Of a stretch of 15,042 nt of DNA, positions 5,338 through 15,042 are shown in pieces. The notes beneath the pieces are model-generated. The model was not told the origin of the DNA and did not search any database. It saw only the letters and a program-made list of their open reading frames with translations. The position numbers and the translations under genes are program-made. Each line of letters starts with the position of its first letter. Position 1 is the stretch's first letter. This stretch comes from a virus: the UHGV virus genome UHGV-0217160; one strand, 5' to 3'.

Positions 5338-5613
5338 ATGTCGATGTACACAACCGCCCAGCTGCTGGCGGCAAATGAGCAGAAATTTAAGTTTGATCCG
5401 CTGTTTCTGCGTCTCTTTTTCCGTGAGAGCTATCCCTTCACTACGGAGAAAGTCTATCTCTCACAAATTCCGGGACTGGTAAACATGGCGCTGTACGTTT
5501 CGCCGATTGTTTCCGGTGAGGTTATCCGTTCCCGTGGCGGCTCCACCTCTGAATTTACGCCGGGATATGTCAAACCCAAGCACTTAGCATGGCTTTCTGA
5601 GGCTTTCGTGTAG
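5338..5613 (+). pseudogene. E: Major capsid protein E (lambda-type), truncated after codon 82 and fused to 9 unrelated codons
   Basis: MSMYTTAQLLAANEQKFKFDPLFLRLFFRESYPFTTEKVYLSQIPGLVNMALYVSPIVSGEVIRSRGGSTSEFTPGYVKPKH matches the lambda E N-terminus, then LAWLSEAFV-stop. Full-length E is ~341 aa, so about 75% of the gene is missing. The break coincides with the start of the island. Confidence 0.85.
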
Positions 5614-5745
5614 TTGCTGGTTTTTACACTTAATCTTTTGATAATAAAGAATAAGTTTATCTGGCGCTTTCACTGAATTTTCCTCGTTATCTGTGTGTTG
5701 CAATCATCTCTGTATTGCAGCTTGTATTGCTTTTTGGGGCTAAAA

Positions 5746-6981
5746 ATGGCTGGCGAGAACAAACTGAGCGACAAAGCGCTTAAAGGATATCTGGGGAAAC
5801 CCAGAGAAAAGCAGATCACCATTGCTGATGGAAAGGGGCTTTCTATTCGTGTGAGTACCAAGGGGGCTGTGAGCTTTGTTTTCTTCTACAGGTTAGCAGG
5901 TGGCCGGGCTGCTCCGGTCTGGCTAACGTTGGGTAAATATCCTGATATGTCACTCAAACAGGCAAGGGAAAAGCGCGACGAGTGCCGTGGTTGGTTGGCT
6001 GACAAACGTGATCCGCGTATCCAGATTAAGATTCAGGCTGAAGAACGCTTAAAGCCGGTCACAGTGGAGGATGCACTAAATTACTGGTATGAAAATTACT
6101 GTAAGGTGCGTCGTAAAACTCATGCTGTAACGCTTGGCAGATTTCGAAAGCATATCTTTCCCTATATCGGTCATTTGCCCGTAAATGACACTCACCTATA
6201 TGAATGGCTGGACTGTTTTGACCGAATTAAACGTAATGCACCAGTTATGGCGGCGTATGTTTTTTCTGACACTAAATTAGCTCTTCGTTTTTGTCGGGTA
6301 CGCCAGTACGCGACGTGTGATGCTTTAAAGGATTTGCGCATGAGTGATGTGGGGCAGATTGCAGGTAAGCGGGATCGGGTTCTGGATGAAGCCGAACTCG
6401 GCCAGCTCTGGAAGGCAATTTTTGTCGAGCCTGATTTAAAACTAATGTCTGAATACACGCGAAAAATGTTTGTGCTTTGTACAGTATTTGGATGTCGAAT
6501 GAGTGAAGCCCGATTATCAGAATGGAGCGAATGGGATCTCGAAAGTTGGGTTTGGACTGTACCAAAAGATCACTCAAAAACTGGTGTTGAAATCGTCAGA
6601 CCAGTACCTGAAATTCTACGACAGTGGGTAACGGATGTTCACGAAGAGACAAAACATACTGGTTATGTGCTGGGAAGTCTGCGAATTAGAGAAAGCGTAA
6701 GCAAGATTGGGGGGAAAATCGGTAAACGTTTGGGCCATGAAAAACAATGGTCACTACACGACCTTAGAAGAACGCTATCTACTCATCTAAGTGATCTCGG
6801 TGTTGAATTTTATGTAGTAGAACAACTGTTAGGCCATGCGCTACCTGGCGTGGCGGGTGTTTATAACCGGAGTAAGTTTATGGCTAAAAAACTGGATGCT
6901 CTGGAACTCTGGACTACATATCTCAATAGCATCGCAGGTGCTGATTCAAAAGTGACAATCCTCAAACAAAAGGCTGGTTAA
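5746..6981 (+). CDS. int: Tyrosine integrase, P4-type (N-terminal arm-binding domain plus C-terminal catalytic domain)
   Basis: MAGENKLSDKALKGYLGKPREKQITIADGKGLSIRVSTKGAVSFVFFYRLAGG... is a typical P4-family integrase N-terminus. The C-terminal region contains HDLRRT...LGH...GVYNRS, consistent with the R-H-R-Y catalytic set. The ORF track start at 5695 is a 5' extension. Confidence 0.9.
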   Translation: MAGENKLSDKALKGYLGKPREKQITIADGKGLSIRVSTKGAVSFVFFYRLAGGRAAPVWLTLGKYPDMSLKQAREKRDECRGWLADKRDPRIQIKIQAEERLKPVTVEDALNYWYENYCKVRRKTHAVTLGRFRKHIFPYIGHLPVNDTHLYEWLDCFDRIKRNAPVMAAYVFSDTKLALRFCRVRQYATCDALKDLRMSDVGQIAGKRDRVLDEAELGQLWKAIFVEPDLKLMSEYTRKMFVLCTVFGCRMSEARLSEWSEWDLESWVWTVPKDHSKTGVEIVRPVPEILRQWVTDVHEETKHTGYVLGSLRIRESVSKIGGKIGKRLGHEKQWSLHDLRRTLSTHLSDLGVEFYVVEQLLGHALPGVAGVYNRSKFMAKKLDALELWTTYLNSIAGADSKVTILKQKAG

Positions 6982-6982
6982 C

Positions 6983-7207
6983 ATGAAAAAAATGGCAATT
7001 GTTGATAAAAAGGGTCTGGAGTACAATCCTAACATCGATCGTATGATCCGTGAGAAAGAATGTCGGGAGCTAACCACTCTTGCGAACAGCACACGCTGGA
7101 AGCTGGAGAAGGAAGGAAAATTTCCTAAGCGGATCAAGATTGGTGCTACAGCTGTGGCGTATCGCCTCTCTGAAATTCAGGCATGGATTAAAGGGGATTG
7201 GAAGTAA
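6983..7207 (+). CDS. alpA: AlpA-family (Phage_AlpA / MerR-like HTH) transcriptional regulator
   Basis: 74 aa; RELTTLANSTRWKLEKEGKFPKRIKIGATAVAYRLSEIQAWI matches the AlpA helix-turn-helix-wing signature. It lies 1 nt after the int stop, the conserved int-alpA arrangement of P4-like elements and Gram-negative PICIs. Confidence 0.85.
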   Translation: MKKMAIVDKKGLEYNPNIDRMIREKECRELTTLANSTRWKLEKEGKFPKRIKIGATAVAYRLSEIQAWIKGDWK

Positions 7208-9785: not shown

Positions 9786-11602
9786 AACGTGCTCCGAACT
9801 TAAAATACCAACCGCGCGACAAAATGACAGAAGTCATCATTTTTGCTGGCAGTGATGCCTGGAGCCATGCAAAAGAATGGAATGAATGGGCGGGTAAGCA
9901 TATTGCAGCAGATGATACACCACCAGTAATTCTGGGTACGGAACAACTGGAAAACCTGGATGATATGCAAATTATCGATGAAGGCCGTCATTATGTGCGT
10001 GTTTATCGTGCCGGAAAGATCGCAGAGAAAAATCTGACGAAGGTTGCGACATTACTTGCTATTGCAGGCGTAAAGGAAGCACGTTGTTACCGTAGCTTTG
10101 TTGATCGAGAGCCTGAAAACTGGACTCCGCGCCTTGTCGGCCTAAAAGCTGAAGCGGAGCATGGGGAAAGTCTGGTGATTGAACTGCCAGTGAAGAAGGC
10201 TGAGCGCAAAAATGACGAGCGTGCTTCATCTTTGGCGTTGAATCAGATGGGGGCCAGCCAGCGCGGTGAAGTTCTCCTTGCACATTACGGCGGCGAACTG
10301 GCAATCAATGCCGACTCTGACACCGTTCATCATTACAACGGCGTTGTATGGGAGCCGGTTCAGGATAAAGAGTTACAGCGTGCTATGGCGCAGATTTTCA
10401 TTGATGCGGAGATCAGCTATTCGCAGAACGCCATTAAATCGGCGGTAGATACCATGAAGTTAAGTTTGCCTGTAATGGGGAATACAGCCCGTAACCTGAT
10501 TGGATTCAGTAACGGGGTATTTGATACCAGAACTGGTAATTTTCGGGAGCATAACAAAAACGACTGGTTGTTAATTGCCAGTGAATTACCTTTCAGCCCA
10601 CCAGCAGAGGGGGAAACGCTGGCAACACATGCGCCGAATTTCTGGAAGTGGTTGCGCCGTTCGGTGGCTGAGAATGACCGCAAGGCAGATCGCGTACTGG
10701 CGGCATTATTCATGGTGCTGGCGAACCGGTACGACTGGCAGTTATTCATTGAGGTAACAGGGCCGGGGGGAAGTGGTAAAAGTGTGATGGCGGAGATTTG
10801 CACCATGCTGGCGGGTAAGGCTAATACAGTATCAGCAAGCATGAAGGCGCTGGAAGATGCAAGGGAACGTGCGTTAGTGGTTGGCTTTTCGCTGATTATC
10901 ATGCCGGATATGACCCGCTACGCTGGTGATGGGGCAGGGATTAAGGCCATTACAGGCGGTGACAAGGTGGCAATTGACCCGAAACACAAAGCCCCCTATT
11001 CAACGCGTATTCCGGCAGTAGTGCTGGCGGTTAACAATAACGCCATGTCATTCAGTGACCGCAGCGGGGGGATCTCACGTCGTCGGGTGATATTCAATTT
11101 TTCGGAAGTTGTACCGGAGAACGAACGCGATTCGATGCTGGCGGAAAAAATAGAAGGTGAGCTGGCGGTAGTGATTCGTCATCTGCTTACACGGTTTGCT
11201 GATCAGGACGAAGCCAGACGCCTGTTATATGAGCAGCAGAAATCTGAAGAAGCACTGGCGATAAAGCGAGAGGGGGATTCGCTGGTGGACTTCTGCGGCT
11301 ATCTCATGGCATCGGTAATGTGTGATGGCCTGTTAGTGGGTAATGCTGAAATTGTGCCATTCAGCCCACGCAGGTATCTCTATCATGCCTATCTGGCTTA
11401 TATGAGGGCACATGGGTTTGGTAAACCTGTAACACTGACGCGCTTCGGTAAAGATATGCCGGGGGCAATGGCGGAATATGGCAGGGAGTATATGAAACGG
11501 AAAACGAAGCACGGTTTGCGTTCAAACGTGACACTGACGGAGGAATCAGAAGACTGGATGCCATCATGTGTATCGGTCACTAATGACGATAGCAAAAATT
11601 AA
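9782..11602 (+). CDS. Phage/plasmid primase-helicase, P4-family (D5/SF3-type NTPase domain)
   Basis: 606 aa; Walker A GPGGSGKSV and a Walker-B-like hydrophobic stretch ending in D (LIIMPDM). Size and position (after int/alpA, immediately before the iteron ori) match the pri/rep gene of P4-like elements and PICIs. Confidence 0.85.
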   Translation: MKRAPNLKYQPRDKMTEVIIFAGSDAWSHAKEWNEWAGKHIAADDTPPVILGTEQLENLDDMQIIDEGRHYVRVYRAGKIAEKNLTKVATLLAIAGVKEARCYRSFVDREPENWTPRLVGLKAEAEHGESLVIELPVKKAERKNDERASSLALNQMGASQRGEVLLAHYGGELAINADSDTVHHYNGVVWEPVQDKELQRAMAQIFIDAEISYSQNAIKSAVDTMKLSLPVMGNTARNLIGFSNGVFDTRTGNFREHNKNDWLLIASELPFSPPAEGETLATHAPNFWKWLRRSVAENDRKADRVLAALFMVLANRYDWQLFIEVTGPGGSGKSVMAEICTMLAGKANTVSASMKALEDARERALVVGFSLIIMPDMTRYAGDGAGIKAITGGDKVAIDPKHKAPYSTRIPAVVLAVNNNAMSFSDRSGGISRRRVIFNFSEVVPENERDSMLAEKIEGELAVVIRHLLTRFADQDEARRLLYEQQKSEEALAIKREGDSLVDFCGYLMASVMCDGLLVGNAEIVPFSPRRYLYHAYLAYMRAHGFGKPVTLTRFGKDMPGAMAEYGREYMKRKTKHGLRSNVTLTEESEDWMPSCVSVTNDDSKN

Positions 11603-11615
11603 ACTTATGGAATAA

Positions 11616-11847
11616 CTGTTCACCACTGTTCACCCTGTCATAAATATCTTTTATATCAGTATATTATAGGGTGAACAGTTATTTATGAACTGTTCACCAA
11701 ACTATTCACTGTTCACCTTTTTGATTGTTTATTGAGCTTCAAGGGTGAACAGTGGTGAACAGTTGGTGAATAGTTTTTGTGAAACTGTTCACCCATTAAC
11801 ATTATGAATTAAAAGAGAAAATATCAAAAGGTGAACAGGTGAAGGGT
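11616..11847. repeat. Iteron-type replication origin: 9 perfect and at least 1 degenerate copy of GGTGAACAG in both orientations, with an AT-rich unwinding block
   Basis: CTGTTCACC at 11616, 11626, 11690, 11709, 11785; GGTGAACAG at 11670, 11744, 11754, 11830; GGTGAATAG at 11765. Tandem copies have 10-11 bp periodicity. AT-rich stretch at 11635-11669. Directly downstream of the primase gene. Confidence 0.8.
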
Positions 11848-12797: not shown

Positions 12798-13838
12798 ATG
12801 GTTGATTTATATTCGCCTACTCAGCTTGTACAGGTGGTTAATGCTGTAGATGTACAAAAACAACTAAATGCGTTGTTTACCAGTTTGTTTTTTACTCGCT
12901 CGGTAATGTTTGAATCGCGCGATATTATTCTTGATACAATCGACGATCCAAATATCCCAATTGCAGCATTTTGTTCTCCTATGGTGGGTAGTAAAGTTTC
13001 ACGTGACGAAGGGTACGAATCAAAAACAATTCGTCCAGGCTATATGAAGCCGAAAAGCAGCATTGATCCAAATAAGTTAGCTGTGCGCCCTGCTGGTGTA
13101 TCACCTGAGCAATACAATGCTTTTGGGGCGCGTAATATTAAAGTTAAACAGGCGATTGTAAATCAAGCTAAAGCTATTCGTGCACGTATTGAATGGCTTG
13201 CCGTTCAGGCAATCACAACGGGGAAAAATATCATTGAGGGCGATGGTATTGAACGTTATGAGCTGGACTGGAATATTAAACCACAAAATATCATCACTCA
13301 GTCTGGCGGTGCTGAGTGGTCAGGTAAGGATAAAGAAACTTTTGATCCAAATGATGATATTGAGAGCTACGCAGAATTTAGTGAGGGCGTCACTAATATC
13401 ATCATTATGGGCGGTAATGTATGGAAGAAATACCGTTCATTCAGAGCGATAAAAGAGGCTCTGGATACCCGTCGTGGTTCTAATTCCGAACTGGAAACGG
13501 CCCTTAAAGACCTTGGTGATTCGGTGAGTTTTAAAGGATATATGGGCGATGTTGCGATTGTTGTTTACAGCGGGCGTTATACCGACGAGGACGGAACTGA
13601 AAAACATTTCCTTGATCCTGATTTGATGGTGCTTGGCAATACGGCTCTTCAGGGGATTGTCGCCTATGGCGGTATTCAGGATCCGGAGCTAATCCGAATG
13701 GGGCTGACTAAAGCCGAACTTGCACCGAAAAACTATATTGTGCCTGGTGATCCTGCTATTGAATATGTGCAGACACATTCAGCACCACAGCCAATACCGG
13801 CCCGCATCAATCGTTTTGTTACCGTTCGCATTGGCTAA
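12798..13838 (+). CDS. Major capsid protein, lambda gpE-family (HK97-fold), diverged island-encoded paralog
   Basis: 346 aa from ATG 12798 (AAGAGGA upstream), which aligns with the lambda E start. Alignable end to end with lambda E: MVDLYSPTQLV / MSMYTTAQLL; GYMKPK / GYVKPK; ITQSGGAEWSGKDKETFDPNDDIESYA / ITQSGGTEWSKRDKSTYDPTDDIEAYA; DTRRGSNSELETALKDLG identical over 14 of 18; GDVAIVVYSG identical. The track ORF from 12585 is a 5' over-extension through the hairpin. Confidence 0.88.
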   Translation: MVDLYSPTQLVQVVNAVDVQKQLNALFTSLFFTRSVMFESRDIILDTIDDPNIPIAAFCSPMVGSKVSRDEGYESKTIRPGYMKPKSSIDPNKLAVRPAGVSPEQYNAFGARNIKVKQAIVNQAKAIRARIEWLAVQAITTGKNIIEGDGIERYELDWNIKPQNIITQSGGAEWSGKDKETFDPNDDIESYAEFSEGVTNIIIMGGNVWKKYRSFRAIKEALDTRRGSNSELETALKDLGDSVSFKGYMGDVAIVVYSGRYTDEDGTEKHFLDPDLMVLGNTALQGIVAYGGIQDPELIRMGLTKAELAPKNYIVPGDPAIEYVQTHSAPQPIPARINRFVTVRIG

Positions 13839-13847
13839 GGGGGAGCA

Positions 13848-14189
13848 ATGGCTACTCATTACACTGAACTCATGGCTGGCACTGAAGCACTGGTGACTAC
13901 GCTGGGGATATTTTCAGCTAATAAAGGGGTAATTCCTGCATTTACGCCACTGATGCAGGAAGATGCAACAGGTGCACTGGTAGTATGGGATGGTTCGAGC
14001 GTAGGTAAAGCGGTTTATGTTTCCGCTGTACAAATCGACACCGCGAAAAAAACACAGGCTCAGGTCTATAAGACAGGTGTCTTAAATGTTGATGCTCTGA
14101 ACTGGCCTGAGTCTGTTAAAGAACTGTCAGTAAAGGTTGCAGCGTTTGTTGGCTCAGGTATTTCTGTTCAGCCGCTGGCTCGTGTGTAA
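13848..14189 (+). CDS. Head decoration protein, lambda gpD-family, diverged island-encoded paralog
   Basis: 113 aa. AFTPLMQEDATGALVVWDGSSVGKAV...VYKTGVLNVDALNWPE...AAFVGSGISV aligns with lambda [27 protein letters not shown]...[16 protein letters not shown]...[11 protein letters not shown]-rich SD AAGGGGGAG. Immediately downstream of the E-like gene, the same D/E pairing as lambda but in reverse order. Confidence 0.8.
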   Translation: MATHYTELMAGTEALVTTLGIFSANKGVIPAFTPLMQEDATGALVVWDGSSVGKAVYVSAVQIDTAKKTQAQVYKTGVLNVDALNWPESVKELSVKVAAFVGSGISVQPLARV

Positions 14190-14200
14190 AGGGGGATACA

Positions 14201-14584
14201 ATGCAGAATGATTACAATGACCTTAAGCCAATTGCCGAAATGATGTACCCGAATCAAGCTGTAGAGGAATTAAAAGCTATCGCTGACAAAATGTGTTTAA
14301 GCGAGCGCCTTGTTGATATGAATCAGGTGATGGAAATTACAACCCTGAGTCGTCGTACACTGCTAAACCTTGAGGCTAGTGGAGAGTTCCCGGAGCGTGT
14401 GCAGGTTACGGAAGGGCGTAAGGCCTGGTATTTAAGTGAAGTGATCGACTGGATAAATAATATTCCTCGCGCTTCTGAATATTGCCGCGTACCTGTCCCA
14501 AAAAAGCCAGATGCGGCGCTATGCCTCAAGATTGAGCGTGTACGCCGCAATGCACGGGATGGTCGCTATAAGCTGATTGGTTGA
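14201..14584 (+). CDS. AlpA/MerR-type winged-HTH DNA-binding protein encoded immediately upstream of cos (candidate packaging specificity or regulatory factor)
   Basis: 127 aa; MEITTLSRRTLLNLEASGEFPERVQVTEGRKAWYLSEVIDWI matches the AlpA HTH-wing pattern and parallels the Nu1 N-terminal HTH (LADIFGASIRTIQNWQEQGMPVLRGGGKGNEVLYDSAAVIKWY). SD AAAGGGGGA, like the D-like gene. Stop is 27 nt before cosQ-type sequence. Confidence 0.7.
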   Translation: MQNDYNDLKPIAEMMYPNQAVEELKAIADKMCLSERLVDMNQVMEITTLSRRTLLNLEASGEFPERVQVTEGRKAWYLSEVIDWINNIPRASEYCRVPVPKKPDAALCLKIERVRRNARDGRYKLIG

Positions 14585-14610
14585 TGAAATTAGGGCCCGC
14601 TCTGGCTGGC

Positions 14611-14810
14611 GGGTCCTTTCCGGCGATCCAGAACGTTACGGGGCGTCAGGCGCGCAGTTTTTCGCTATTTGTGAAAATTTTCCTGTTTAAGGCGTTTCCG
14701 TTCTTCTTCGCCGTAACTTAATGTTTTTATTAAAAACACCCCCTAAAAAGAAAGGAAACGACAGGTGCTAAAAACAGGCTTTTTGGCCTCTGTCGTTTCC
14801 TTTCTCTGGT
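14611..14810 (+). other. cos: cos packaging site, lambda-type: cosQ, cosN (variant 12-nt cohesive-end sequence) and cosB (R3, IHF-site region, R2, R1)
   Basis: GGGTCCTTTCCGG...GTTACG (cosQ side), then by homology the nick site between 14640 and 14641 with predicted overhang GGGCGTCAGGCG (lambda: GGGCGGCGACCT, as recalled). R3 CGTTTCCGTTCT at 14693-14704, R2 GAAAGGAAACGACA at 14749-14762, R1 TGTCGTTTCCTTTCTCT at 14791-14807. Confidence 0.8.
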
Positions 14811-14829
14811 TTTGTCCGTGGAATGAACA

Positions 14830-15042
14830 ATGGAAGCCAACAAAAAGCAGCTGGCTGACATTTTCGGTGCGAGTATCCGTACCATTCAGAACTAGCAGGA
14901 GCAGGGAATGCCCGTTCTGCGAGGCGGTGGCAAGGGTAATGAGGTGCTTTATGACTCTGCCGCCGTCATAAAATGGTATGCCGAAAGGGATGCTGAAATT
15001 GAGAACGAAAAGCTGCGCCGGGAGGTTGAAGAACTGCGGCAG
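14830..15042 (+). pseudogene. Nu1: Terminase small subunit Nu1-type, interrupted by an in-frame TAG at codon 22; 3'-partial at window end
   Basis: ATG 14830: MEANKKQLADIFGASIRTIQN, then TAG (14893-14895) where lambda Nu1 has Trp, then QEQGMPVLRGGGKGNEVLYDSAAVIKWYAERDAEIENEKLRREVEELRQ in the same frame to the window end. AGGAG at 14897-14901 precedes the in-frame ATG at 14908. Confidence 0.75.

Follow-up and report, generated by a model that had tools for sequence, protein, structure and literature searches.

The 15,042-nucleotide viral sequence UHGV-0217160, the whole of which is referred to here as the window, carries close to its right-hand end a cos packaging site of the phage lambda type, for which a reading of the letters alone (the original prediction) had proposed conserved terminase-binding sites next to a divergent cohesive-end sequence. 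The window is 99.6% identical to Escherichia coli chromosomes and, in NZ_CP159453.1 (L001), lies within a lambdoid prophage in which an island interrupts the major-capsid gene E, according to the annotation of that genome. An uninterrupted E gene, present in another prophage (L168), aligns to both island flanks, the two alignments overlapping by 8 bp, which gives the island a length of ~10.95 kb. It contains, in this order, an integrase, an AlpA gene, SWIM, HicB and Icd-like genes, a DUF4222 gene, a D5-type primase and a single-stranded DNA-binding protein (SSB), followed by a late part with an E-type capsid gene, a D-type decoration gene, a 127-residue AlpA-family gene, the cos site and the gene of the small terminase subunit (TerS), Nu1, which contains an internal stop. 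Pfam recovers Phage_integrase/Arm-DNA-bind_3, Phage_AlpA, D5_N/Pox_D5/DUF5906, Phage_cap_E and HDPD along the island. The integrase accompanied by AlpA, the D5-type primase, the presence of an own capsid gene and the co-orientation with the late genes of the helper identify the element as a helper-embedded phage-inducible chromosomal island (PICI) of the 11capE, or E:Phage_cap_E, family, and the cos site belongs to this satellite, as had been supposed.

To describe the site, positions 14300-15042 of the window were compared with phage DE3/lambda, which carries a cos annotation at L002 632-643, yielding an alignment that is gapless from cosQ through Nu1 to the window end (433 nt in total). The coordinates are collected in Table 1. 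The architecture is that of lambda: cosQ lies 30 nt from the nick, as it does there, and the three TerS-binding boxes R3, R2 and R1 match lambda at 16/16 positions each and at identical offsets, as in a lambda-type cosB (the extent of R3, bp 50-65, is taken as defined in PMC9026076). The conservation of cosQ and of the R boxes that had been claimed is hence borne out, and the interval 14611-14810 correctly brackets the elements from cosQ to R1. The 12-nt overhang reads GGGCGTCAGGCG, as compared with GGGCGGCGACCT in lambda, positions 1-5 and 11 being the same and 5 of the 12 positions (6, 8, 9, 10 and 12) being different. This divergence is real, and the lambda sequence given by the original prediction agrees exactly with the annotated DE3/lambda cos. 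The predicted nicks, placed by homology, would cut the top strand 5' of 14641 and the bottom strand after 14652, in the context ...TTACG/GGGCGTCAGGCG/CGCAG... (slashes mark the nicks). Both flanking CG dinucleotides and the GGGC start are retained, as in a lambda-type cos according to PMC4669245 and to Vahanian et al. 2017 as cited in PMC9303873.

Concerning the distribution of the changes, 11 of the 32 positions from -12 to +20 around the nick are mismatched, vs 18 of the 401 elsewhere in the alignment (Fisher p ~9e-7). Divergence from lambda reaches 42% in cosN, in contrast to ~11% in the spacers, and eight further substitutions lie within ~12 bp on either side of the overhang. All mismatches of the cosQ-cosN spacer fall within the stretch ...CCAGAACGT, its terminal TACG being retained. 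A denser substitution had been proposed for cosN and I1 together. It holds for cosN but not for I1, where 4/34 mismatches are similar to the other spacers and the segment TAACTTAATGTTTTTATT, which we take to hold the core of the integration host factor (IHF) site, is unchanged from lambda. Nu1 starts at the same distance from cos as in lambda, and its coding part from 14830 shows only 3 mismatches in 211 positions.

Table 1. Features of the cos site and of the surrounding island (window coordinates unless stated otherwise).
Feature	Position	Strand	Basis or remark
cosQ (GGGTCCT), packaging-termination element	14611-14617	+	7/7 lambda-identical
cosQ-cosN spacer	14618-14640	+	5/23 mismatches to lambda; ends in nick-flanking CG (14639-14640)
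cosN cohesive-end sequence GGGCGTCAGGCG	14641-14652	+	ungapped alignment to annotated DE3/lambda cos
Right nick-flanking CG (14653-14654) and cosN-to-R3 spacer including I2	14653-14689	+	4/37 mismatches (bp 13-49)
R3, TerS-binding box placing the large terminase subunit (TerL) on cosN	14690-14705	+	16/16, lambda bp 50-65; same distance to cosN
I1 region (IHF bend site), between R3 and R2	14706-14748	+	4/34 mismatches in bp 66-99
R2, inverted TerS-binding box	14749-14764	-	AGAAAGGAAACGACAG, identical to the lambda R2 16-mer
R1, TerS-binding box	14790-14805	+	CTGTCGTTTCCTTTCT, identical to the lambda R1 16-mer
Satellite Nu1/TerS gene	14830-15042, running on to 15381 (L001 32381)	+	pseudogene with internal stop according to the Prokaryotic Genome Annotation Pipeline (PGAP)
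attL junction inside helper gene E	~5575-5582	+	alignment to the L168 E gene
PICI integrase	5746-6981	+	Pfam
AlpA adjoining the integrase	6983-7207		
Satellite major capsid protein	12798-13838	+	Pfam Phage_cap_E, 1.4e-41; 44% identical to helper E
Satellite head decoration protein	13848-14189	+	Pfam HDPD, 4.5e-15; 38% identical to helper D
127-residue AlpA-family gene, PICI late-module marker	14201-14584	+	Pfam PF05930, E=7.5e-9; PDB 8c3t, E=2e-9

Natural variation of cosN has been described before. A lambda-identical overhang does not define the family, since N15 and Gifsy-1 are counted as lambda-like phages, and variation at overhang bp 7-12 is common among these phages, with N15 and phiD326 changed at 9 and 12, and Gifsy-1 at 8, 9 and 11 (PMC4669245); a further natural variant, GGGCGGCGCGCT, is reported by Feiss and co-workers for mEp213/LLS. 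In PMC4669245, cosQ, the left cosN half and the nick-flanking CG dinucleotides are named as the conserved parts, and Vahanian et al. 2017, insofar as cited in PMC9303873, give the first four overhang bases plus two flanking bases per side. Right-half variants are nicked efficiently by lambda TerL owing to its anchoring by R3-bound TerS, the burst obtained with lambda and N15-hybrid terminases is the same on either cosN, and a 2-bp mismatch between the ends is viable at a four-fold lower yield (PMC4669245). We read the N15 overhang as GGGCGGCGTCCG, so that 12G is common to N15 and GGGCGTCAGGCG. Like these natural variants, the site described here retains cosQ, the CG flanks and GGGC, and its changes are limited to inner and right-hand overhang bases. 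It differs from them in extent, with 5/12 positions changed vs 2-3/12 in the published examples, including position 6 of the left half. Rare phage cos sites (L087, L114) likewise vary at this position, having T or A there. Compared with lambda itself, the order, orientation and spacing of the R boxes, cosQ, TAACTTAATGTTTTTATT, the CG flanks and overhang bases 1-5 are alike. The differences are that the site is part of an 11-kb satellite and follows an AlpA-family gene instead of the lysis/bor region, and that the adjacent satellite Nu1 has a foreign C-terminal half as well as, in this copy, an amber codon.

The overhang is not peculiar to this sequence. A 19-mer spanning it, TACGGGGCGTCAGGCGCGC, has exact matches in 57 IMG/VR contigs as well as in independent complete genomes, and nearly all of the 57 contigs are PICIs with the same capsid-decoration-AlpA-cos cassette, as established by mapping the neighbouring genes with the island and helper proteins. 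An IMG/VR scan that used the AlpA gene end and cosQ as anchors and left cosN unconstrained yielded 91 PICI cos sites, distributed among GGGCGTCAGGCG (50), the lambda allele (35), GGGCGGAAGGCG (4), GGGCGGCAGACG (1) and GGGCGGCTGACG (1); a CG stands directly 5' of the overhang in 91/91. When these sites are split by cosB the alleles segregate: lambda-type cosB is accompanied by GGGCGTCAGGCG in 40/40 and by the lambda allele in none, while sites with a non-lambda cosB carry lambda cosN in 35/50. In the 35 PICI sites that carry the lambda overhang, cosB is always unrelated (with a GGTGGTGG... motif) and is followed by a 180-residue TerS homologue, and no fully lambda-like cos is present among the 91 sampled sites. 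A general scan for lambda-type cos sites gave the lambda allele in 118/135 among the matches listed; GGGCGTCAGGCG appears in ~1/~115 of the non-satellite cos sites among the matches listed, in what is a pattern-limited sample. The AlpA-cos module as such is found in 418 of 5426 complete E. coli genomes (~8%).

A few full prophages also carry the allele. That of L168 shows Nu1-A-W-B-C-D-intact E-FI behind GGGCGTCAGGCG, those of L134 and L179 show Nu1-A behind it, and the upstream contexts of the three are all different. The exact overhang is present in no deposited phage, the best match being 87% over 70 bp, and the nearest deposited phages, YDC107_1 and PhiR46_1, carry GGGCGGAAGGCG, which is 5/12 away from lambda and differs at 2 positions from GGGCGTCAGGCG. 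The possibility, raised by the original prediction against itself, that cosN is that of a known lambdoid phage does not apply to deposited phages, but it does to predicted full prophages, where the same overhang is found. The overhang is a new cohesive-end allele, as judged against deposited phages, in a known type of site and a known family of satellites. It is neither specific to satellites, being also present in full prophages, nor universal in the PICI family, where other alleles occur. As to a changed terminase discrimination, TerL of the L168 prophage differs from that of the helper, which has canonical cosN, in only 10 of 641 residues, none of them clustered in the nuclease domain and 6 within the first 37, which we take to be the TerS-binding end of gpA. 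This makes altered discrimination unlikely, and TerL does not co-vary with the cosN allele in this one complete comparison.

Sibling elements show how the site is assembled. The PICI cassette shows 94-100% conservation up to cosN, beyond which ~10 groups can be distinguished: several have a diverged lambda-type cosB with intact, amber-containing or truncated, or no Nu1, and another has the unrelated cosB and then the 180-residue TerS homologue, with 38% identity to the Nu1 of the satellite. When the AlpA-cos module is matched to E. coli genomes, many of the alignments stop at window positions 14674-14682, which places the recombination junction in the conserved I2 stretch just to the right of cosN. 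This shows that cosN and cosB are separately inherited modules that recombine in a short conserved stretch between them. In L126, L128 and their relatives the right flank at bp 13-45, CGCAGATTCTTGCTATTTATGAC, resembles that of phage N15 (CGCAGATTCTCGCTATATATG) rather than that of lambda, suggesting mosaic exchange with N15-like elements.

Conservation was evaluated over 29 unique sequences that combine the variant cosN with a lambda-type cosB. In these, cosQ has 0/7 variable positions and the cores of the R boxes are invariant, with spacers that are variable at up to 23/27 positions. R2 is placed at bp 109 in 27/29 (the regular expression found none in L126 and L130) and R1 at bp 152 in 22/29, the rest not being located by the regular expression. 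Invariant subsites amid variable spacers are the signature of purifying selection on cos while Nu1 decays.

The Nu1 gene of the satellite deserves a separate description. It comprises 183 codons and is chimeric: residues 1-100 are 97% identical to lambda Nu1, and residues 101-183, presumably the TerL-binding half, show ~45% identity to lambda/21 TerS and no more than 41% to any deposited phage, although their conservation across satellites is 99-100%. The chimeric protein may be a satellite-specific TerS that retargets helper TerL. In this copy codon 22 is changed from TGG to TAG (14893-14895). The amber is polymorphic, being present in 4 of the 9 IMG/VR siblings with this Nu1 and absent from the other 5, which are intact; it is common to L058, L147 and L169, and Nu1 is intact in L023, L165, L142, L160 and L171. 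In further relatives the gene is deleted or truncated to differing extents. The change GAA to GAG, which makes AGGAG before Met27, was considered as a restart linked to the amber and ruled out, as intact copies and a prophage share GAG.

The enclosing prophage has its own cos at L001 16206, in the same orientation and 15 kb upstream of that of the satellite. Its overhang is the canonical GGGCGGCGACCT, and 5/12 bases would be mismatched between its ends and those of the island, consistent with the incompatibility with a co-resident lambda-type phage put forward by the original prediction. By comparison with annotated phage 21, its cosB and the DNA-binding domain of its TerS (L001 16170-16460, ~870 bp before the window start) are of the phage 21 type, so that helper and satellite cos differ in both cosN and cosB; the cosB mismatch recurs in strain XJ6.1 (L181). 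Together, the amber in Nu1 and the 21-type specificity of the helper mean that packaging would need another helper of lambda specificity, and this copy is probably not packageable by the prophage that encloses it.

With these data, the reading that we prefer, with a probability of roughly 0.7, is that this is a functional lambda-type cos and that, judging from the sequences compared, the overhang would be a natural variant that is tolerated and passed on together with the late module of the PICI, and not a discrimination device. The cosQ element, the pattern CG/GGGCG....../CG and the exact distance to R3 are all retained, and 4 of the 5 overhang changes are in the right half. The variant is most likely explained by the tolerance of lambda-like terminases, which is demonstrated for bp 7-12 and suggested for position 6 by rare natural variants. 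By homology to lambda, the island would replicate after induction and excision. A TerS with a lambda-type DNA-binding domain, coming from a helper or, in intact copies, from the island's own Nu1, would then bind R3, R2 and R1 across the IHF bend at I1 and place a lambda-like TerL on cosN, which would nick 12 bp apart to leave 5' overhangs GGGCGTCAGGCG. Packaging would end at a downstream copy through cosQ and cosN. As the two ends of a packaged molecule would come from the same allele they should anneal normally after injection, leaving cyclisation unaffected, while satellite and helper ends would not pair because of the 5 mismatches. The allele would descend with the late module capsid-decoration-AlpA-cosQ-cosN, with right-hand cosB/TerS modules being exchanged at I2.

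Several observations weigh against this preferred reading. Cleavage and packaging of this element are predicted by homology, and tolerance at position 6 is suggested only by the rare natural phage variants in L087 and L114. The divergence of cosN (42% vs ~11%) exceeds what simple drift would give and needs either a patch acquired by distant recombination or selection. The 40/40 association of lambda cosB with variant cosN in PICIs can be explained by descent, and selection could explain it too. Finally, the TerS of this copy carries an amber codon, and the 21-type helper TerS should not use a lambda-type cosB because of the known lambda/21 specificity, so the copy may not be mobilisable in this strain.

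The opposite view, that the divergent overhang is adaptive and acts as an incompatibility or discrimination determinant separating the satellite ends, or the cleavage of its cos, from those of the helper, is in our judgement unlikely. It could operate if chromosomes running from satellite cos to helper cos, or mixed joins, could not cyclise, or if only some TerL proteins cut the site. In its favour, the sampled capE composites pair a helper with GGGCGGCGACCT and an embedded PICI with GGGCGTCAGGCG in 5/5, their cos sites having the same orientation and lying 15 kb apart. However, with ~90% of prophage cos sites carrying the lambda allele, 5/5 mismatched pairs are expected by chance, and there are 5 loci at which a capE-embedded sibling PICI has the lambda allele. 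The high frequency of the allele among PICI cos sites (55%) as compared with ~1/~115 of the non-satellite sites among the matches listed, and the contrast between lambda-cosB PICIs (40/40 variant) and the others (35/50 with lambda cosN), point in the same direction. These counts are nevertheless non-independent, since one left-module lineage (94-100% identical) combined with a junction to the right of cosN gives the same pattern. Clustering of the substitutions at the nick site (p ~1e-6) and the four-fold loss of viable yield already caused by a 2-bp end mismatch (PMC4669245) also speak for selection. Against it, full prophages with the variant allele have near-identical TerL, published tests of lambda-type terminases found no cosN specificity for right-half changes, and it was not possible to formulate a clear advantage for the satellite.

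A more general form of this idea is quite doubtful as well: E. coli PICIs might be selected against a cos fully identical to that of a lambda-type helper, and would change either cosB, using a TerS-like or Rpp protein of their own, or, if lambda cosB is kept, the overhang, which would then be a determinant of cohesive-end incompatibility. Such a determinant would prevent the joining or cyclisation of satellite with helper molecules, or of chromosomes running, in the embedded state, from satellite cos to helper cos. It is compatible with the 40/40 vs 0/35 distribution, the 5/5 pairs and the clustering at the nick site.

That the site is a decaying relic of a defective island, acquired from a lambdoid phage along with part of Nu1 and now unused, is rather improbable. 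The amber in Nu1, its deletion or truncation in relatives, the internal stop in the integrase of a sibling island (L181) and the wrong, 21-type, cosB specificity of the resident helper would agree with it. On the other hand, all positions known to matter (cosQ, the CG flanks, GGGC, the three R boxes and their spacing) are intact, they are invariant in 29 unique sequences whose spacers are saturated with change, which is the opposite of decay, and the module persists in 418/5426 complete E. coli genomes. As Nu1 decays and the R boxes are kept, it can be argued that the site itself is under selection. An artefact, whether due to an inexact lambda sequence, to faulty alignment or to an error in sequencing, has no observation in its favour and is refuted by the annotated DE3/lambda cos reading GGGCGGCGACCT, the gapless alignment from cosQ to Nu1 and the exact 19-mer in 57 IMG/VR contigs and independent complete genomes.

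Two published satellite systems are also close to the one described. Tommasini, Mageeney and Williams found 201 such elements in the capsid gene, mentioned without further analysis a 258-bp, 90%-identical cos-like stretch common to PICI and helper, and showed excision for Eco567.11capE, transfer not being detected (PMC10111431). The present island shares with 11capE the insertion point in a lambda-E-type capsid gene, the short identity block, the ~11 kb size, the order int-AlpA...primase...own capsid...cos and the co-orientation with the helper late genes. The subsites of cos, the overhang difference between helper and satellite, the cosB swaps among siblings and the 21-type helper cosB are not in that paper. 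The second system is that of the PICIs with Rpp, a PICI protein that retargets helper TerS (PMC6739421, PMC9026076), exemplified by EcCICFT073 (Fillol-Salom et al. 2018/2019; Murialdo & Feiss 2022). These are also E. coli PICIs packaged by a lambda-like terminase, with cos at the end of the late module beside a TerS-like or Rpp gene. They keep a helper-like cosQ/cosN and replace cosB, in contrast to this element, which keeps lambda cosB and changes cosN, so that the precedent cited by the original prediction is in fact the reverse case (PMC6739421, PMC9026076). Here cosN differs at 5/12 positions and all three R boxes are present and lambda-identical, unlike in an Rpp-type cos, and no rpp gene (139-154 residues) lies beside the site, where the neighbours are the 183-codon Nu1 homologue downstream and the 127-residue AlpA-family protein upstream.

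Two genes beside PICI cos sites were considered as Rpp candidates. The 127-residue helix-turn-helix gene was ruled out, being AlpA-family by Pfam and by PDB sequence search (8c3t is an AlpA family protein), with no match to an Rpp structure. The 180-residue gene of the siblings is not supported as Rpp either: it is a TerS homologue that has no PDB sequence match at E<=1, Rpp structures included, and for this reason the alternative cosB next to it is not named Rpp-type.

The results provide a precise anatomy for the packaging site of 11capE helper-embedded satellites, and establish one non-lambda cohesive-end allele as the commonest in E. coli PICI late modules (55% of sampled sites). In practice, lambda ends should not be assumed for PICI or lambda cos cassettes employed in transduction or "antibacterial drone" work, or when phage termini are deduced from sequence. 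The mismatches between helper and satellite offer an experimental handle on helper choice by embedded satellites and, if selected, would make end compatibility a new layer of satellite-helper conflict. The present evidence favours neutral inheritance of the overhang.

It should be noted that the island presents additional characteristics. The 127-residue AlpA-family protein is the second AlpA of the island, has a ~35-residue N-terminal extension and is encoded directly upstream of cosQ; its gene is kept in PICIs located at capsid E, at portal B, at tRNA-Pro, near abgR and near roxA. Inverted-repeat units (GGTGAACAGTTATTTATGAACTGTTCACC and variants) are repeated at 11605-11793 (L001 28605-28793), just downstream of the primase gene, which fits the expected PICI replication origin, placed downstream of pri in the literature. 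A 30-nt direct repeat, 83% identical and with the pattern TCATC..TGTATTGCA..TTGTATTGC.TT, is located inside each island end (window 5704-5733 and L001 33424-33453), and may correspond to the doubled motif beside att described by Tommasini et al. as unique to helper-embedded PICIs. In the near-identical sibling island of strain XJ6.1 (L181, NZ_CP074356.1) the integrase, at 9877-11112, has an internal stop; some 11capE-type copies therefore decay in place, permanently splitting the helper capsid gene. A final point of interest is a DUF2971 gene on the minus strand (L001 32488-33246), between the satellite Nu1 and attR and thus beyond the window end, which is found only in siblings with a lambda-type Nu1 and could be accessory or defence cargo.

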